Source: a virus
Taxonomy: Duplodnaviria > Heunggongvirae > Uroviricota > Caudoviricetes
Reading direction: 5' to 3' (one strand)
IMG/VR virus record: IMGVR_UViG_2690316068_000008
Location: 1 to 36,857 of that record
DNA length: 36,857 nucleotides
Shown: piece by piece, positions 3,657-12,284 of the stretch
Layout of the letters: each line of letters begins with the position of its first letter
Numbering within the stretch: position 1 is the stretch's first letter
Translations under genes and position numbers: made by a program
The notes under the pieces: model-generated
What the model saw: only the letters and a program-made list of their open reading frames with translations
The model's database searches: none
What the model was told of the DNA's origin: nothing

Positions 3657-4232
3657 TTACTCAAAGTACTTAACTGTTATGGTTATAATTTTTCCAATAA
3701 TTTCGATTTCTTCTTTTTTACATTCGAAAGCCCTATTTCCACCTTCAACTAAGATTCTTCCACCAGGTAAACGAGTGATATCGCGGATTGTTACTTCGGC
3801 ATCAATACTTATTACCCATTTACCGTCACGAATATCGTTAAACTCTTTATCGCAAATAAAAACGGAATTGTTATCGGTGATTACAAACGGATTTTTGAGC
3901 GTAGATGGTAGAAATTCTTTATCGAAAATATAAAAACCATCTTCCTGCAAGGTTCCATCAGATAATACATATTTAACGACTTCCATAGTATTTGTATTAC
4001 CTGAAGTTTGCTTTGAACCATGTCCGGTCGTGAGCCAGTTAAGCGAGGCGCCCGTTTCAAGTGCGCACTGGATTACCCATTCAGCAGGGAATGAGTCACG
4101 CATATAGCGTGTGGCGAGAGTACTTTTAGAGATTCCTAAGTGATCGCACAACGCCTGTCGAGTCTTGAAGCCATATGCTTCTACCATGCGCTCTATAGCG
4201 CCTCGTCCGCCTTTCTCCAAATTCATGGTCAC
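3657..4232 (-). CDS. cI: Immunity repressor, 186 CI-type (HTH N-domain plus oligomerisation C-domain)
   Basis: 191-aa ORF adjacent to the divergent early operon. N-terminal ERMVEAYGFKTRQALCDHLGISKSTLATRYMRD HTH-like segment. Length close to the 186 CI as I recall it. Start may be GTG at 4232 or ATG at 4226. Confidence 0.6.
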   Translation of the reverse strand: MTMNLEKGGRGAIERMVEAYGFKTRQALCDHLGISKSTLATRYMRDSFPAEWVIQCALETGASLNWLTTGHGSKQTSGNTNTMEVVKYVLSDGTLQEDGFYIFDKEFLPSTLKNPFVITDNNSVFICDKEFNDIRDGKWVISIDAEVTIRDITRLPGGRILVEGGNRAFECKKEEIEIIGKIITITVKYFE

Positions 4233-6406: not shown

Positions 6407-7260
6407 GCACCATCCTGAAATGGGCGGGAAATAAAACCGCCATTATGTCCGAACTGAAAAAACACCTTCCTGCTGGCCCGCGACTGGTTGAACCTTTCGC
6501 GGGTTCCTGTGCTGTGATGATGGCGACGGATTACCCCAGCTATCTGGTTGCTGATATTAATCCTGATTTAATCAACCTCTATAAAAAGATTGCCGCTGAT
6601 TGCGAAGTGTTTATATCTCGTGCCAGAGCTTTATTTGAGGAAGCAAACAGGGAGGTGGCTTATTACAACATAAGGCAGGAGTTTAACTGCTCAACTGAAA
6701 TTACTGACTTCATGAAAGCAGTATATTTCCTGTATCTCAATCGTCACGGTTACCGTGGGTTATGTCGCTATAACAAGAGCGGGCATTTCAACATTCCCTA
6801 CGGTAATTATAAAAATCCGTATTTCCCTGAAAAAGAAATTCGCGCATTTGCAGAGAAAGCCCAGCGAGCAACGTTTATCTGCGCCAGCTTTGATGAAACG
6901 CTGGCGATGCTGCAGGTGGGGGATGTGGTGTATTGCGATCCGCCTTATGACGGTACGTTTTCCGGTTATCACACTGACGGCTTCACTGAAGATGACCAGT
7001 ATCACCTGGCATCCGTTCTTGAACATCGGTCATCAGAAGGACATCCCGTCATTGTTTCTAACAGTGACACATCCCTGATCCGTTCGCTGTATCGCAAATT
7101 TACTCACCACTACATCAAGGCAAAACGCAGCATCGGTGTGGCAGCTGGTGATAGTAAATCTGCAACAGAAATCATTGCTGTTTCCGGGGCGCGCTGCTGG
7201 GTGGGATTTGATCCTTCGCGTGGCGTAGATAGTTCTGCTGTGTACGAGGTGCGTGTATGA
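6403..7260 (+). CDS. dam: DNA adenine methyltransferase (Dam-like, N6-adenine MTase)
   Basis: [12 protein letters not shown]-terminus, SAM-binding EPFAGS and catalytic DPPY ([10 protein letters not shown]) motifs. Start overlaps the upstream stop. Confidence 0.8.
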
Positions 7261-9671
7261 GTCATGACGATATGAGCAACTCTAGCGGCTTTAACGAGGC
7301 CGCTGCATCATTTTCATGGAACGGCCCGAAAAAGGCCATTAACCCTTATCTGGACCCGGCGGAATTTGCGCCGGAGTCTGCACTTTCAAACCTGATCACT
7401 CTGTATGCTGCCGATAACGAGCAGGAACAACTGCGCCGCGAGGCACTGAGTGAGCAGGTCTGGGAGCGTTATTTCTTTAATGAATCCCGTGATCCTGTCC
7501 AGCGCGAAATGGAGCAGGATAAGCTCATTAGCCGCGCAAAGCTTGCGCATGAGCAGCAGCTTTTTAACCCGGACATGGTCATTCTGGCAGATGTCAGCGC
7601 CCAGCCTACCCACATCAGCAAACCGCTGATGCAACGTATCGAATACTTCAGCAGCCTGGGCAGGCCAAAGGCTTATTCCCGCTATTTGCGTGAGACGATT
7701 AAGCCATGTCTGGAGCGACTGGATTGTGTACGCGACAGTCAGCTATCCGCTTCTTTCCGTTTTATGGCAAGCCATCAAGGGCTTGAGGGCCTGCTGATCC
7801 TGCCTGAAATGAGTCAGGATCAGGTAAAACGCCTGTCCACCCTGGTAGCTGCGCATATGAGCATGTGCCTTGATGCCGCTTGTGGCGATTTATATGCCAC
7901 CGATGACGTTAAGCCAGAAGAAATCCGCAAGACATGGGAAAAGGTGGCAGCGGAAACCCTGCGACTGGATGTTATCCCGCCTGCGTTTGAGCAACTCCGC
8001 CGGAAAAGAAACCGCCGCAAACCCGTGCCCTATGAACTCATACCGGGTTCGCTGGCACGTATGCTTTGCGCCGACTGGTGGTATCGAAAATTGTGGAAGA
8101 TGCGTTGCGAATGGCGGGAAGAGCAGTTGCGTGCTGTCTGCCTGGTCAGCAAAAAAGCATCTCCCTATGTCAGCTATGAAGCCGTGACGCATAAACGTGA
8201 GCAGCGCCGTAAGTCGCTGGAGTTTTTCCGTTCTCATGAACTGGTGAACGAAGACGGCGACACGCTGGATATGGAAGATGTGGTAAACGCCAGCAGCAGC
8301 AACCCGGCACATCGCCGCAATGAGATGATGGCCTGTGTTAAAGGTCTGGAGCTTATCGCAGAAATGCGTGGTGACTGCGCCGTTTTCTACACTATCACCT
8401 GTCCGTCACGTTTCCATTCCACGCTCAACAACGGCAGACCCAACCCGACCTGGACAAATGCGACGGTAAGACAAAGCAGCGATTATCTGGTCGGCATGTT
8501 TGCTGCATTTCGTAAGGCTATGCACAAAGCCGGGTTGCGCTGGTATGGCGTGCGGGTGGCTGAGCCGCACCATGACGGTACTGTGCACTGGCATCTCATG
8601 TGTTTCATGCGCAAAAAAGACCGCCGCGCCATTACTGCATTGTTGCGTAAGTTTGCCATCCGTGAAGACCGCGAGGAACTGGGTAATAACACTGGTCCAC
8701 GCTTTAAATCTGAGCTGATAAACCCACGCAAAGGAACACCGACAAGCTACATCGCGAAATACATCAGTAAGAACATTGACGGGCGTGGTCTGGCTGGCGA
8801 GATCAGCAAGGAAACGGGTAAATCCCTGCGTGATAATGCTGAATACGTTAATGCCTGGGCGTCTCTGCATCGTGTTCAGCAATTCCGCTTCTTTGGCATT
8901 CCGGGGCGTCAGGCTTACCGTGAACTGCGATTGCTGGCTGGTCAGGCGGCAAGGCAACAGGGGGACAAAAAAGCAGGTGCGCCGGTACTGGATAACCCGC
9001 GCCTTGATGCCATCCTGGCTGCTGCTGATGCAGGTTGTTTTGCCACCTACATCATGAAGCAGGGCGGCGTACTGGTTCCCCGCAAATATCACCTTATCAG
9101 AACAGCTTATGAAATTAACGAAGAGCCGACTGCTTATGGCGATCACGGTATTCGTATTTATGGCATCTGGTCACCCATTGTACAGGGCAAGATTTGCACT
9201 CATGCAGTGAAGTGGAAAATGGTTCGTAAGGCCGTTGACGTTCAGGAGGCGGCAGCCGACCAGGGCGCTTGCGCCCCTTGGACTCGTGGCAATAACTGTC
9301 CCCTTGCTGAAAATTTGTACCAACAAGGGAAAGACAAATCAGCTGATGGGGGCTCCAGAACGGACATTACCCGCATGGATGACAAGGAATTGCACGATTA
9401 CCTGCACAGTATGAGCAAAAAAGATCGCCGGGAGCTGGCAGCAAGGTTGCGCCTGGTGAAACCGAAACGGCGTAAAGACTACAAACAGCGAATTACAGAT
9501 CATCAGCATCAGCAGCTCGTCTATGAACTGAAGTCCAGAGGATTTGATGGCAGCGAGAAAGAAGTCGATTTGCTCCTTCGCGGTGGCAGTATTCCGTCAG
9601 GAGCAGGCTTGCGTATCTTCTATCGGAACCAGCGTTTGCGGGAAGATGATAAGTGGCGGAACCTGTATTAA
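7257..9671 (+). CDS. A: Replication initiation endonuclease gpA (rolling-circle initiator)
   Basis: 804-aa ORF, ATGA overlap with dam. Size and position match P2 gene A. Contains a histidine-rich [12 protein letters not shown] segment consistent with a rolling-circle initiator metal-binding motif. Confidence 0.8.
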
Positions 9672-9766
9672 TTACGCGGGTTAACAATTCGTGCTCTTAA
9701 TAATACCAGGCATATCAGGCTGATGAACGTAAAAAAAACGTTTTACATCAGTAAGATTATTATATA

Positions 9767-9782
9767 CTGTAAATATAAACAG
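9767..9782 (+). promoter_or_regulatory. LexA box (CTGTAAATATAAACAG; CTGT-N8-ACAG)
   Basis: Exact match to the CTGT-N8-ACAG SOS-box pattern with an AT-rich core, about 45 bp upstream of the 9826 ORF and overlapping a TATACT -10-like hexamer. Confidence 0.5.
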
Positions 9783-9825
9783 TGGTTGTGTATACAGTAT
9801 TTCTTGTGGTGTCATAGGAGGAAAG

Positions 9826-10014
9826 ATGCAGGACTATTTTTTGGAGTCTTTGAAGCTCCAGCGCATTGATTTTTTTCTTAAGCTTGTAGCGGCTAGTGAG
9901 TGTAGTGATGAAGAGAAGGGGCTAGCTTTGCAGTGGGTTTCTGAACTAACAGATGAACTCATGGCAAAAATCAGAACCCACGAATACAACCGCTCAATGG
10001 ATGTCATCAGTTGA
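9826..10014 (+). CDS. Small hypothetical protein downstream of LexA box (possible Tum-like antirepressor component)
   Basis: 62-aa ORF with AGGAGG RBS 5 nt upstream of the ATG. Function inferred only from context. Confidence 0.35.
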   Translation: MQDYFLESLKLQRIDFFLKLVAASECSDEEKGLALQWVSELTDELMAKIRTHEYNRSMDVIS

Positions 10015-10024
10015 GGTGACTTTT

Positions 10025-10258
10025 ATGCGCATTGAAATAATGATCGATAAAGAGCAGAAGATTAGCCAGTCTATCCTGGACGCCCTTGAATCCGAGCTTT
10101 ACCGCAATCTGCGCCCCCTGTATCCCAAAACGGTAATTCGTATCCGCAAAGGTAGCTCTAACGGTGTGGAACTGACCGGACTGCAACTGGACGAAGAAAG
10201 AAAACAAGTGATGAAAATTATGCAGAAAGTGTGGGAAGACGACAGCTGGCTGCATTAA
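10025..10258 (+). CDS. DinI-like protein
   Basis: 78 aa from ATG 10025 (RBS GAGGTG): MRIEIMIDKEQKISQSILDALESELYRNLRPLYP...VWEDDSWL. Resembles E. coli DinI in length, MRIE start and acidic/Trp C-terminus. Confidence 0.65.
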   Translation: MRIEIMIDKEQKISQSILDALESELYRNLRPLYPKTVIRIRKGSSNGVELTGLQLDEERKQVMKIMQKVWEDDSWLH

Positions 10259-10632
10259 GAAACGTTGCTGGCGTCTGAACTTGCTTCTGGCGCCAGCAAG
10301 GTTGAACAACGAGCCGTGCGAGGCGTTAGCTCTGTGGTGCATGTCTATGCCGCATGAGATCGCATGATCGTTTGAGGATCGTTTTTGCTAAGGCCCGCCA
10401 GAACTGTCGGGCTTTTGCGTAGATCATGCAGGTGCATGAAAACCACTACATAAAGCGGGCAGGCGTGGCGGGGATACGAGCGCGCGCTAAGTCATATAAG
10501 AGTTATATATTGATTTGATTGCTGGACATGCATACAGTATCGCTCTATCATCTAATAAATCTTAGAGTATTTGACAATGTTTGGATAAAATAGAACCTAA
10601 CTTATTCATAATCCGCTAAACAGGGATGTCAG

Positions 10633-11547
10633 ATGCCATACCAATTGGTAGAGCTTAGCCCCGTAGCTAACGATCTTGAACAGTTAGGAACCAAAGAGAA
10701 GTTTTGGTTCTATTTCTCCGATGACACTGTAAATTTGCAGTTGTTTAAGTACTCTAGGCCAGGTACTGGCGAGCATTGGTCTGAAAAGTGTGCTGCTGAG
10801 TTATGTCATTTGCTTAACATTCCACATGCTAGCTATGATTTGGCGCGATACAATGGTCGATTCGGTGTGGTGACTCAGAATATCATTCCATCTGGTTTCC
10901 GGATGGTAATGGGAAATGAAGTGCTTCACAGTTCGACATTCGATTATCCTGGGCCTTTACAAGCCGGGGAAAAGCCGGTAAGGGTCAGAGAACACACTGT
11001 CACAAGGGTATTGGGTTGTTTAGATAGGGAATCTATCAAGCCTCCTCCGAGTGTATATGATCTAACCGGGCTAAATGCAGCAGATGTATTTTGTGGATAT
11101 TTGATGCTCGATGCACTTGTGAGTAATCAAGATCGCCATCATGAAAATTGGGCGATCATGCTTAACAATGAAACTGGTGAGCAGTTTTTGTGTCCAACAT
11201 ACGATCATGCCGCTAGTTTAGGAAGGGAGATGTTAGATGATGAGCGTAACGAACGGCTTAATACTAAAGATAAAAATCGACAAATCCCATGTTTTGTAAG
11301 AAAAGCTCGCTCTGAGCTATTCAAAGCAAAAACTGATAAAAAGCCCTTGCTGACCGTTGAAGCATTTCAACATGCAGTTGAAGGGAGAGTTGCCGCTCGC
11401 GACCATTGGTTAGGTAAGTTGAGCGTTTTAACAGAAGATTCCATTACAGATGTGTTTAACCAAGTGCCTTCATCGTGTATATCCGACAGTGCACGTAGAT
11501 TTGCAACGTTAATGGTAATGGAAAATCGCAGAAGGTTACTAGAATGA
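10633..11547 (+). CDS. HipA-like Ser/Thr kinase (short, kinase domain only; cargo gene 1)
   Basis: 304 aa. Motifs LGTKEKF, SNQDRHHENW and LCPTYDHA line up with HipA ATP-binding, catalytic-loop and Mg-binding motifs as I recall them. AT-rich; RBS AGGGA upstream. Confidence 0.6.
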   Translation: MPYQLVELSPVANDLEQLGTKEKFWFYFSDDTVNLQLFKYSRPGTGEHWSEKCAAELCHLLNIPHASYDLARYNGRFGVVTQNIIPSGFRMVMGNEVLHSSTFDYPGPLQAGEKPVRVREHTVTRVLGCLDRESIKPPPSVYDLTGLNAADVFCGYLMLDALVSNQDRHHENWAIMLNNETGEQFLCPTYDHAASLGREMLDDERNERLNTKDKNRQIPCFVRKARSELFKAKTDKKPLLTVEAFQHAVEGRVAARDHWLGKLSVLTEDSITDVFNQVPSSCISDSARRFATLMVMENRRRLLE

Positions 11548-12284
11548 CTAATACAAACTCCGTTTACGTCGCATGGCAGGCACCAGATACCAGAGACTGG
11601 CATGTTGTTGGTAACTTGCAAGAGCGCAAATCGGGGTATGTTTTCAGGTATACCAAAGGTGCTCTTAAATCTACTAAATTTACAAAGTTTAGCGGCATGA
11701 GTGATGTTCGTGAAACTTATGTTTCGGAAGAATTGTTTCCTCTTTTTAAAAATCGCCTTTTATCACCGAGACGTCCAGAGTATCCGAGTTTCATTAAATG
11801 GCTTGGATTTGAAGAAGATAAGGTAAATCCTATCGATATTCTTGCTCGCTCGGGAGGCTTACGAAGCACTGATCAGCTGCAGATTTTCAAAAAAATTGAT
11901 GTTGATTCTGATGGTAACTTTGAGCATTTTTTCTTCTTACATGGACTTGGTTACTTAAATAGCTTAGCTAATGCTCGTGTATCTGAATTGAAACCGGGGC
12001 AAATTTTGCGTCTTTGCTTGGATCTTCAAAATGAATACGATGGGGATGCTGTTGTCGTTCGTGCAGATAAACCAGCTGAAATCGTTGGTTACTGCCCTAG
12101 GTATTTAAGTAATGATATCAAGAAGATGTTATTGGATGATCCAAAATCAATCACTTTAACGGTCGAAAAGATTAGCGATGATGCTCCTCATAACTATCGG
12201 TTATTATGTAAATTATCAGGAGTACTAAGCCAAGCCTGTCAATCGACGCTGATTCCTCAGGATGAGTTTGAACCTATTGAGTAA
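11544..12284 (+). CDS. HipA N-terminal-subdomain-like (HipS-like) protein fused to a HIRAN-like C-terminal domain (cargo gene 2)
   Basis: 246 aa, ATGA overlap with gene 1. N-terminal segments VVGNLQERKSGYVFRY, LFPLFKNRLLSP and NPIDILARSGGLRS resemble the HipA N-subdomain. C-terminal NEYDGDAVVVRADKPAEIVGYCPRYLS resembles the HIRAN core. Confidence 0.5.
   Translation: MTNTNSVYVAWQAPDTRDWHVVGNLQERKSGYVFRYTKGALKSTKFTKFSGMSDVRETYVSEELFPLFKNRLLSPRRPEYPSFIKWLGFEEDKVNPIDILARSGGLRSTDQLQIFKKIDVDSDGNFEHFFFLHGLGYLNSLANARVSELKPGQILRLCLDLQNEYDGDAVVVRADKPAEIVGYCPRYLSNDIKKMLLDDPKSITLTVEKISDDAPHNYRLLCKLSGVLSQACQSTLIPQDEFEPIE

Follow-up and report, generated by a model that had tools for sequence, protein, structure and literature searches.

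How does a prophage respond to DNA damage when RecA is not expected to cleave its CI-type repressor? This question is raised by a short region to the right of replication gene A in the stretch of DNA analyzed here (the window, 36,857 nt), which carries a prophage encoding a 186-type CI, CII and gene A. The first-pass annotation had read this region (9740–10258) as an SOS-inducible induction module of the 186 Tum type, in which the two ORFs could be either a Tum that is split or frameshifted, or an antirepressor accompanied by a separate DinI-like protein. Our analysis bears out the SOS-inducible Tum-type reading, as both ORFs are related to Tum, a 186-type CI is present, and the genetics of the E. 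coli HS prophage DuoHS point the same way. We thus consider the region, with a probability of roughly 0.9, to be an SOS operon belonging to a prophage of the 186/Fels-2-like kind (Peduoviridae), comprising a LexA-repressed tumA-type antirepressor gene and a DinI-like tumB-type gene, with the module accounting for the DNA-damage response of the prophage. The support assembled here comes from the anatomy of the region, the homologies of its products, the conservation of its LexA box and layout, and its near-identity to the experimentally tested DuoHS module; LexA dependence and the need for the ORF1 orthologue in induction are taken from the literature on DuoHS, and CI sequestration from that on 186 Tum.

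Promoter and transcript end

The features of the module are collected in Table 1. The perfect CTGT-N8-ACAG motif, the TATACT hexamer that overlaps it, the 62-aa ORF with its AGGAGG ribosome-binding site, and the DinI-like ORF that follows 10 nt later in another frame with its own Shine-Dalgarno sequence were all found where the first-pass annotation had placed them.

Table 1. Coordinates of the module and of the two CI-type repressor genes in the window.
Feature	Position	Strand	Remarks
Putative -35 hexamer TTTACA, p95 analogue	9742..9747	+	Predicted; read from the sequence
-10 region	9763..9770	+	TATACT (9763-9768) overlaps TACTGT (9765-9770); overlaps LexA box
LexA (SOS) box TACTGTAAATATAAACAGTG	9765..9784	+	20-mer; core CTGT-N8-ACAG at 9767-9782
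Shine-Dalgarno AGGAGG for ORF1	9816..9821	+	Ends 4 nt before ATG at 9826
ORF1, tumA-type gene, putative 62-aa antirepressor	9826..10014	+	Homologous to N-terminal half of 186 Tum
Shine-Dalgarno GAGGT for ORF2	10013..10017	+	Overlaps ORF1 stop codon
ORF2, tumB-type gene, 77-aa DinI-like protein	10025..10258	+	Pfam DinI PF06183
Strong GC-rich hairpin after tumB	10265..10299	+	Without U-run
Terminator-like hairpin GGCCCG...CGGGC, then UUUUG	10390..10419	+	Predicted by analogy with t95a
Second CI-type protein, 307 aa	2683..3606	-	Duplicated N-terminal HTH domain
186-type CI immunity repressor, 191 aa, expected TumA target	3657..4232	-	Pfam Phage_CI_repr and Phage_CI_C

The core of the palindrome, CTGTAAATATAAACAG, is the sole CTGT-N8-ACAG in the 36.9-kb window, and the 20-mer around it, TACTGTAAATATAAACAGTG, agrees at 17 of 20 positions with the E. 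coli LexA consensus, TACTGTATATATATACAGTA. The TACTGT hexamer within the -10 region is also the annotated -10 of promoter p95 in the 186 record, where it stands 18 nt from a -35 hexamer TTCACA, compared to 17 nt between TTTACA and TACTGT in the window. Based on this likeness to the annotated p95, we infer a putative SOS promoter at 9742–9770, with 9765–9784 as its predicted LexA site.

At the other end of the operon, the RNA fold of 10250–10430 has an energy of -71.3 kcal/mol (z -2.78), and the second of the two hairpins downstream of ORF2 is the probable end of the SOS transcript, by analogy with the t95a terminator that stands after 186 tum (186 record). We note that a terminator-like hairpin across the ORF1/ORF2 junction (10003–10020) is no stabler than shuffled sequences (z -1.34), and we claim neither attenuation nor coupling from it.

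The two small proteins and the CI repressor

ORF1 lies immediately to the right of gene A (gpA, 7257–9671; Pfam Phage_GPA) and is transcribed rightward, in the same gene A-tum order as in 186, PSP3, Fels-2 and DuoHS. It matches phrog_698 (E 3.6e-38), which PHROGs labels as of unknown function, and searches of Pfam and NCBIfam with this protein returned no family match. The first-pass annotation had proposed aligning both ORFs with 186 Tum and E. coli DinI. In the case of ORF1, BLASTP matched it to neither 186 Tum nor PSP3 TumA, and the relationship to Tum becomes visible at the level of profile–profile comparison alone: hhalign aligns the ORF1 family with the family of the 186 Tum N-terminal half at a probability of 96.6% (E 6.5e-10), ungapped and in register over residues 3–44 of both, with reversed-column controls at ≤0.6%. 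The corresponding comparison with the PSP3 TumA family is weak (12%, E 2.4e-3), and ORF1 shares 35% identity over 34 aa with a 60-aa "tum protein" of a Yersinia phage. Among close relatives, it is 98% identical to Fels-2 STM2728 and matches DuoHS ECHS_RS04495, published as "tum", at 61 of 62 positions. In-frame deletion of ECHS_RS04495, or a lexA(Ind-) allele, abolishes mitomycin C induction and lysis in DuoHS (PMC12055606). Taken together, homology, location and the presence of a 186-type CI place ORF1, at the level of sequence, in the family of Tum/TumA N-terminal halves, and the name TumA is justified by the profile link to the N-terminal half of 186 Tum and by the DuoHS locus tag. An AF2 model of ORF1 is a two-helix hairpin (pLDDT 88); neither a Foldseek comparison of this model with PDB structures nor a profile search of PDB sequences returned a significant match (best E 0.76), and a likeness to small phage inhibitors such as Aqs1 was not significant, the two-helix hairpin being too generic a fold.

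The alignments are more direct for ORF2, which matches the Pfam DinI family (PF06183) over profile positions 1–63 of 63 (E 1.3e-22; 80.4 bits, cutoff 24.2) and phrog_189 at positions 71–148 of 151, and which is 41% identical to residues 71–145 of 186 Tum, its C-terminal half, 77% identical to PSP3 TumB and 29% identical to E. coli DinI (match to DinI, PDB 1ghh, E 3.6e-6). Against the NCBIfam DinI equivalog NF007893, however, it scores 42 bits, under the cutoff of 111, compared to 178 bits for authentic DinI. Passing the Pfam cutoff assigns ORF2 to the DinI-like/TumB family, and judged by these scores it is a phage DinI-like paralogue and not DinI itself. By analogy with this family, and in line with the note in the 186 record that the corresponding 186 product modulates SOS induction, ORF2 is most likely a RecA-filament-binding modulator of the SOS response.

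The expected target of TumA, the 191-aa CI, shares 31% identity with 186 CI along its entire length and 91% with DuoHS CI, with Peptidase_S24 below the Pfam cutoff, and by its sequence belongs to the 186 type, for which cleavage by RecA is not expected. The 307-aa CI-type protein is a possible additional target; in other prophages with an identical TumA, a protein of 308–318 aa of this long-CI kind is the sole CI homologue. When loci are compared, all 72 that carry both a window-type TumA and a CI share a single type of CI N-terminal domain, with a minimum identity of 0.58 compared to a between-type maximum of 0.57, while the CI C-terminal domains at these loci form 14 clusters, the lowest identity being 0.23. 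TumA type follows CI N-terminal domain type in 72/72, 72/73 and 61/69 loci, which were sampled by TumA similarity, such that slower HTH evolution and shared ancestry may contribute to the coupling. The Spearman correlations of TumA identity with CI domain identity are similar for the N-terminal (0.53) and C-terminal (0.55) domains, and it is therefore the comparison of clusters and ranges, not correlation, that favors the N-terminal domain. Since one N-terminal type occurs with divergent C-terminal domains beside an identical TumA, this comparison suggests that the target of TumA may be the N-terminal DNA-binding domain of CI, which, so far as the literature is accessible, is not established as a docking site for Tum. 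We regard the pairing of TumA with N-terminal type as a modest contribution, a small, new and testable comparative point.

A broader version of this idea, which we put forward tentatively and at somewhat under even odds, is that a given TumA allele may serve as a "master key" for the N-terminal DNA-binding domain of many divergent 186-type CIs, including the long forms with duplicated HTH domains. If this were the case, a single TumA made during the SOS response could cross-induce co-resident P2-like prophages with different CI variants, and the window TumA could also neutralize both CI-type proteins of its own prophage. Even without this extension, the occurrence of an identical TumA with one CI N-terminal type and many C-terminal types bears on cross-induction in polylysogens.

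Alternative explanations and proposed mechanism

Two rival readings put the module itself in doubt. In one, the palindrome resembles a LexA box by coincidence and SOS regulation of the operon is absent. A consensus sigma-70 promoter scan gives no match at 9742–9770, 0.44 CTGT-N8-ACAG motifs are expected by chance per window, and at least one occurs in 38 of 100 shuffles, such that the motif by itself is not beyond chance. Its position, however, is far beyond chance, because the motif lies ≤250 nt upstream of a TumA-type ORF in 249 of 256 related loci, across all Tum types and despite differing flanks, compared to a background frequency of one in 14.9 kb. In an alignment of the window, Fels-2, 813R9, PSP3, 186 and the Yersinia phage, the TACTGTA...ACAGT columns are invariant while the flanks diverge; the box is homologous to the LexA site annotated at 186 p95; and a box identical to that of the window precedes the DuoHS tum, whose induction is lost with lexA(Ind-). 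A chance palindrome is already contradicted by this evidence, and we give it almost no credence. The other reading takes the two ORFs as a 186-type tum broken by a frameshift or nonsense mutation, or by an assembly error, leaving a pseudogene module and a non-inducible prophage. The ORFs do lie in different frames only 10 nt apart, their combined length (62 and 77 aa) approaches that of the 146-aa Tum, and 59 of the 80 loci found with the 186-type N-terminal half have a fused gene; the relatives listed for that half are mostly short and do not include full-length 186 Tum, so we make no claim that the split form predominates. The first-pass annotation had suggested checking for a frameshift near 10000–10030, and this part of its proposal does not hold, because population data contradict it: the same layout, with the ORF1 stop codon (10012–10014), a 10-nt gap and a change of frame, recurs at 83 IMG/VR loci and, among 5426 complete E. 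coli genomes, in 857. Furthermore, each ORF has its own Shine-Dalgarno sequence and start codon, ORF1 shows 100% conservation at 80 loci whose other parts differ, and its family (phrog_698) consists of stand-alone proteins of about 62 aa; a phmmer search of 1.84 billion representatives returned 66 relatives, nearly all of 50–100 aa, with no fused Tum among these 66. DuoHS, with the same layout, is inducible, and tum is naturally split by a stop codon in Fels-2 and PSP3, with the upstream gene as the antirepressor, according to PMC3121763. A broken gene is thus barely conceivable, and the module is the split TumA/TumB form rather than the fused single-ORF form of 186. What survives of the "split or frameshifted Tum" proposal is a natural split, which is the same as the annotation's second option of an antirepressor plus a separate DinI-like protein, and this is in keeping with the homologies of both ORFs.

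If the operon is real and intact, the division of labor between its products can still be read differently. ORF2 could be the induction effector, with ORF1 an accessory or leader peptide and the DuoHS deletion phenotype polar. ORF2 is the sole product with a curated family, its translation may be coupled to that of ORF1 through its Shine-Dalgarno sequence, and the DuoHS deletion, which joined the ORF1 start and stop codons, could in principle lower expression of the downstream DinI-like gene. Against this, the 186 record annotates the truncated, TumB-equivalent product made from an internal GTG start, which holds the DinI part alone, as one that "modulates SOS induction", and full-length Tum as a protein that "inhibits CI DNA binding"; antirepressor activity in PSP3 lies in the upstream gene, on the strength of a personal communication quoted in PMC3121763; and deletions of the Gifsy dinI homologues are without effect on induction (PMC3121763). 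In addition, 51 of 160 loci have a TumA-type gene without an adjacent DinI-like gene (30 from the PSP3-type query, 21 from the 186-type query), and it is the N-terminal half, not the DinI half, that follows CI type, with TumB so similar between the window and PSP3 despite their differing CI and TumA types. We consider ORF2 as effector very improbable on these grounds. TumA could also induce by a route other than CI sequestration, acting on Apl, CII, LexA, RecA or the second CI-type protein only. The biochemical proof of CI binding is confined to the fused 186 Tum, and identical TumA proteins occur beside CIs that are 37–55% identical overall. However, 186 Tum is a CI antirepressor (186 record; PMC7708051), ORF1 is homologous to precisely the part of it that is missing from the truncated, non-antirepressor product, and TumA type follows CI N-terminal type, with the gene at the Apl position far more variable within a TumA type than this domain. 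A different route is, in our assessment, unlikely.

In our preferred reading of a LexA-repressed operon for a CI antirepressor and a DinI-like partner, host LexA would occupy the box overlapping the -10 region in the lysogen and keep the operon off. Upon DNA damage, activated RecA would promote LexA self-cleavage, the promoter would fire, and one transcript would give two small proteins, corresponding to the two halves of the fused 186 Tum. The ORF1 product, a predicted helical hairpin, would then bind the non-cleavable 186-type CI and prevent its contact with the operator, a step for which the coupling of TumA type to CI N-terminal type argues here, such that removal of CI would derepress the lytic promoter and induce the prophage. 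The ORF2 product most likely binds RecA filaments and tunes how strong or how lasting the SOS signal is, and would be dispensable for the switch itself. Mitomycin C, fluoroquinolones and similar agents are thus predicted to induce the prophage. In practical terms, these assignments are of use for annotation: ORF1 is a "hypothetical protein" in RefSeq, in Fels-2 and in most phage records, while about one complete E. coli genome in six carries a tumA-type ORF1, the putative genetic trigger of induction.

Comparison with known systems

E. coli DinI (PDB 1ghh) aligns end to end with ORF2, including the C-terminal W-E-x-D-D-W helix, and differs in that ORF2 falls short of the equivalog cutoff. The Gifsy-1, -2 and -3 operons (GfoA, GftA and GfhA; PMC3121763) similarly place a DinI homologue under a LexA box together with a small antirepressor that acts on a non-cleavable repressor, although in these lambdoid phages dinI comes first, and both antirepressor and repressor belong to other families. 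Closer to the window is 186 itself, with a LexA-repressed promoter (p95) to the right of gene A, a Tum whose N- and C-terminal halves resemble ORF1 and ORF2, respectively, and a non-cleavable CI as target. In 186, however, the two halves form one ORF with nested in-frame starts, followed by orf97, whereas in the window they occupy two frames and are followed by unrelated cargo.

PSP3 has two adjacent genes after gene A with a LexA box ahead of them, and its record describes tumA as "similar to 5' end 186 tum; UV induction" and lists tumB as well, but its TumA is of another sequence type, its genes are separated by 3 nt rather than 10, and its CI has another type of N-terminal domain. Fels-2 of Salmonella shares both layout and LexA box with the window, its STM2726.1 being 99% identical to ORF2, and differs in its downstream cargo and in the annotation of STM2728 as a hypothetical protein; Fels-2 is given as the cause of lexA-null lethality by Bunny et al. 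(2002), as cited in PMC3121763. The experimentally tested module of DuoHS also follows the replication endonuclease gene, with the same LexA box, genes of 189 and 234 nt and a 10-nt gap, and its DNA is 98% identical to that of the window. Its tum and DinI-like (ECHS_RS04500) products differ from those of the window by one substitution each (T51S in ORF1; 76 of 77 residues identical in ORF2), while the cargo downstream of the DinI-like gene is different, and two genes of the window, for the KAP NTPase and for the second CI-type protein, are missing from DuoHS. Fels-2, PSP3 and DuoHS already provide known examples of the split TumA-type/TumB-type arrangement, and the module of the window, correctly read by the first-pass annotation, is a real and ordinary member of this group.

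Two Tum halves downstream of gene A

A P2/186-like (Peduoviridae) prophage makes up the window, and the perfect palindrome, the 62-aa ORF with its AGGAGG and the 77-aa DinI-like ORF 10 nt further on were all found where the first-pass annotation had placed them.

Features of the induction module, the immunity region and their surroundings
Feature	Position	Strand	Remark
KAP-family P-loop NTPase, 505 aa	1140-2657	-	between integrase and repressor genes
Second CI-type gene, 307 aa	2683-3606	-	two tandem Phage_CI_repr HTH plus CI C-terminal domain; directly downstream of 191-aa CI
CI, 191 aa	3657-4232	-	left end, with integrase
Gene A	7257-9671		Pfam Phage_GPA, E 3e-128; ends 155 nt before ORF1
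TTTACA	9742-9747		counterpart of p95 -35
TATACT	9763-9768		overlapped by LexA box
TACTGT	9765-9770		overlapped by LexA box; counterpart of p95 -10
20-mer TACTGTAAATATAAACAGTG	9765-9784		compared with LexA consensus
LexA box core CTGTAAATATAAACAG	9767-9782	+	perfect CTGT-N8-ACAG palindrome; from sequence
LexA right-half-site-like GTATACAGTA	9790-9799	+	6 nt downstream of main box
AGGAGG, Shine-Dalgarno position	9816-9821	+	ends 4 nt before ORF1 ATG
ORF1 (TumA type), 62 aa	9826-10014	+	ORF with ATG start
Hairpin GTCATCAGTTGAGGTGAC	10003-10020	+	then TTTTAT; covers ORF1 stop codon and ORF2 Shine-Dalgarno
ORF2 (TumB type), 77 aa	10025-10258	+	starts 10 nt past ORF1 stop codon, different frame
Strong hairpin after ORF2	10265-10299	+	RNA fold
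Terminator-like hairpin with U-run, after ORF2	about 10390-10419	+	RNA fold
Two overlapping cargo genes	10633-12284	+	between tumB and portal gene

ORF2, whose GAGGT ribosome-binding site overlaps the stop codon of ORF1, belongs to the DinI family (Pfam PF06183, 80.4 bits with the cutoff at 24.2) and matches the DinI structure PDB 1ghh (E 3.6e-6). It is related both to Tum, the fused 146-aa antirepressor of phage 186 (41% identity to residues 71-145), and to E. coli DinI (29%, for a DinI sequence that reaches 178 bits with the NCBIfam DinI equivalog model); its identity to PSP3 TumB is 77%. With that model ORF2 reaches only 42 bits, the cutoff being 111, which makes it a DinI-like paralogue and not DinI. 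The hairpin at the ORF1-ORF2 junction, flagged as terminator-like by a scan, was rejected, its stability being no greater than that of shuffles (z -1.34).

ORF1 has no family in Pfam or NCBIfam and falls in phrog_698 ("unknown function", E 3.6e-38). Its suggested alignment with 186 Tum fails in BLASTP, which gave no match to PSP3 TumA either, and succeeds between profiles: 34 ORF1 relatives against 46 relatives of the 186 Tum N-half align residues 3-44 on 3-44, ungapped (probability 96.6%, E 6.5e-10; reversed-column controls at most 0.6%). A 60-aa "tum protein" of a Yersinia phage is 35% identical to ORF1 over 34 residues, and the Tum N-terminal motif is visible in divergent ORF1 relatives found with phmmer. 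The 186 N-half family in turn matches the PSP3 TumA family (86.5%, E 4.6e-6), the direct profile comparison of ORF1 with PSP3 TumA being weak (12%, E 2.4e-3). An AlphaFold model of ORF1 (30-sequence alignment, pLDDT 88) is a confident two-helix hairpin (helices 5-22 and 28-61) with the nearly invariant Cys26 in its turn; none of its structural neighbours was informative.

With ORF1 resembling the N-half and ORF2 the C-half, the two halves of Tum are present as separate genes. Of the earlier proposal of a "split or frameshifted Tum", the split stands, and a frameshift or artefact is contradicted by the same layout (replication endonuclease, hypothetical protein, DinI-like family protein, at ≥95% identity) in 857 of 5426 complete E. 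coli genomes and by a gap of exactly 10 nt in 83 of 260 related loci. These 260 also include 48 loci with a PSP3-like 3-nt gap, 60 with the 186-like fused form and 60 with a TumA-type gene and no DinI-like gene nearby. The last arrangement accounts for 30/80 loci of a PSP3-type scan and 21/80 of a 186-type scan; the available downstream sequence spans several kb to 10 kb in most of them.

The LexA box and its promoter

The palindrome without its context is not significant: its chance expectation is 0.44 per window, and at least one was present in 38 of 100 shuffles. It is position and conservation that make the box, the single CTGT-N8-ACAG in the whole window, significant. Across all TumA types, 249 of 256 loci carry this motif in the 250 nt preceding the TumA-type ORF, against a background rate of one per 14.9 kb, and an alignment of six phages shows TACTGTA...ACAGT as invariant columns between flanks that cannot be aligned. 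The 20-mer agrees at 17/20 positions with the E. coli LexA consensus.

In the 186 record, the homologous site is annotated as the LexA site of p95, the LexA-repressed promoter of tum, with -35 TTCACA, an 18-nt spacer and -10 TACTGT; its window counterpart has TTTACA, 17 nt and TACTGT. Because a generic promoter scan called no promoter at the LexA-box site, we infer the SOS promoter of the window, as the p95 counterpart, from this homology. We note also that the half-site-like sequence downstream of the box, in which GTGG takes the place of a matching CTGT left half, retains its (T)ACAGTA in Fels-2, 813R9 and DuoHS (the E. coli HS prophage); it could represent a second, degenerate box or belong to the region where the transcript starts.

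Immunity genes and the TumA-CI relationship

The window CI is 31% identical to 186 CI over its full length, carries Pfam Phage_CI_repr and Phage_CI_C (with Peptidase_S24 below threshold only), and is followed by an Apl-position gene and then CII (69% identical to 186 CII). The immunity is thus of the 186 type, the kind induced via an antirepressor and not by repressor cleavage. The window and one other locus (L074) have a tandem pair of immunity-type repressors; a 308-318-aa protein like the 307-aa one here is the sole CI homologue in ten other prophages that share this TumA, and PSP3 CI has 286 aa.

ORF1 is 100% identical across 80 otherwise divergent IMG/VR loci, in which int, cI and apl together behave like a swapped cassette (Int 53-100% identical, Apl from no match to 99%), with 93-100% conservation along the backbone between cII and tumA/tumB, gene A included. 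Their CI proteins, 308-318-aa duplicated-HTH forms included, are 37-99% identical to the window CI, or 62-99% in the N-terminal and 23-83% in the C-terminal domain. Over 224 loci, phylogenetically related and sampled by TumA similarity, TumA type predicts CI N-terminal domain type (matching in 72/72 loci of the window type, 72/73 of the PSP3 type and 61/69 of the 186 type). One locus with PSP3-type TumA and 186-type CI is an apparent non-cognate recombinant. Within the window type, the N-terminal domain forms 1 cluster (minimum identity 0.58, against a maximum of 0.57 between types) and the C-terminal domain 14 (0.23, against 0.39-0.46), a contrast to be read with the generally slower evolution of HTH domains in mind; simple rank correlations fail to separate the domains (0.53 vs 0.55). 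Greater variability is likewise seen in the Apl-position gene, the neighbour of the N-terminal coding region on its other side.

This pattern suggests that TumA may dock on the CI DNA-binding domain, which would explain a block of operator binding and, if true, predicts cross-induction among prophages with a common CI N-terminal domain type. The point goes beyond the accessible literature, and we suggest it as a testable hypothesis. Some complete E. coli genomes hold up to four module copies (median one), so polylysogeny of P2-like prophages with shared TumA occurs, which bears on possible cross-induction.

The KAP NTPase, shared among the 80 loci with L074 only, hits PADLOC candidate PDC-S20 at E 7e-78 and shows weaker similarity to PifA and QatA. 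The cargo pair after tumB encodes a HipA_C-like kinase (304 aa) and a HIRAN-domain protein (246 aa). It matches the PADLOC candidate defence system PDC-M03 (E 2e-122 for A, 3e-93 for B) and fills a variable slot that holds other cargo in relatives; it recurs in L008, L016, L021 and L077.

Proposed induction pathway and known counterparts

In the lysogen, LexA would sit on the box over the -10 region; upon DNA damage, RecA-stimulated LexA self-cleavage would open the promoter, TumA and TumB would be made from one transcript, and TumA would sequester CI, allowing the lytic promoter to fire. TumB probably adjusts the activity of RecA filaments, as DinI does. An internal-start product equivalent to TumB is described in the 186 record as a modulator of SOS induction, and deletion of dinI homologues in Gifsy phages was without effect on induction (PMC3121763). 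The same paper describes a stop codon dividing tum in Fels-2 and PSP3, with the upstream gene as antirepressor.

The earlier reading of the region as an SOS induction module of 186 Tum type is supported by these homologies, by the conservation of the box and by the genetics of the P2-like prophage DuoHS, in which tum (ECHS_RS04495) deletion or lexA(Ind-) abolishes mitomycin C induction (PMC12055606). In E. coli HS, this 189-nt "hypothetical protein" gene lies immediately after the replication endonuclease, and a DinI-like gene begins 10 nt past it. The two products are 61/62 and 76/77 identical to those of ORF1 and ORF2, and the two CI proteins share 91% identity; at the DNA level the module as a whole is 98% identical, with an identical LexA box, the similarity stopping at the ORF2 stop codon. 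As this near-identical module has been tested genetically, the proposed function is shown for an essentially identical copy. The remaining value is one of annotation, ORF1 being still "hypothetical" or of "unknown function" in public resources though it is the induction trigger. The system itself is already known: from 186 p95-tum, whose product resembles a fusion of antirepressor and DinI (PMC3121763), from PSP3, whose record names tumA and tumB, from Fels-2 (STM2728 98% identical to ORF1, STM2726.1 99% to ORF2), and from DuoHS.
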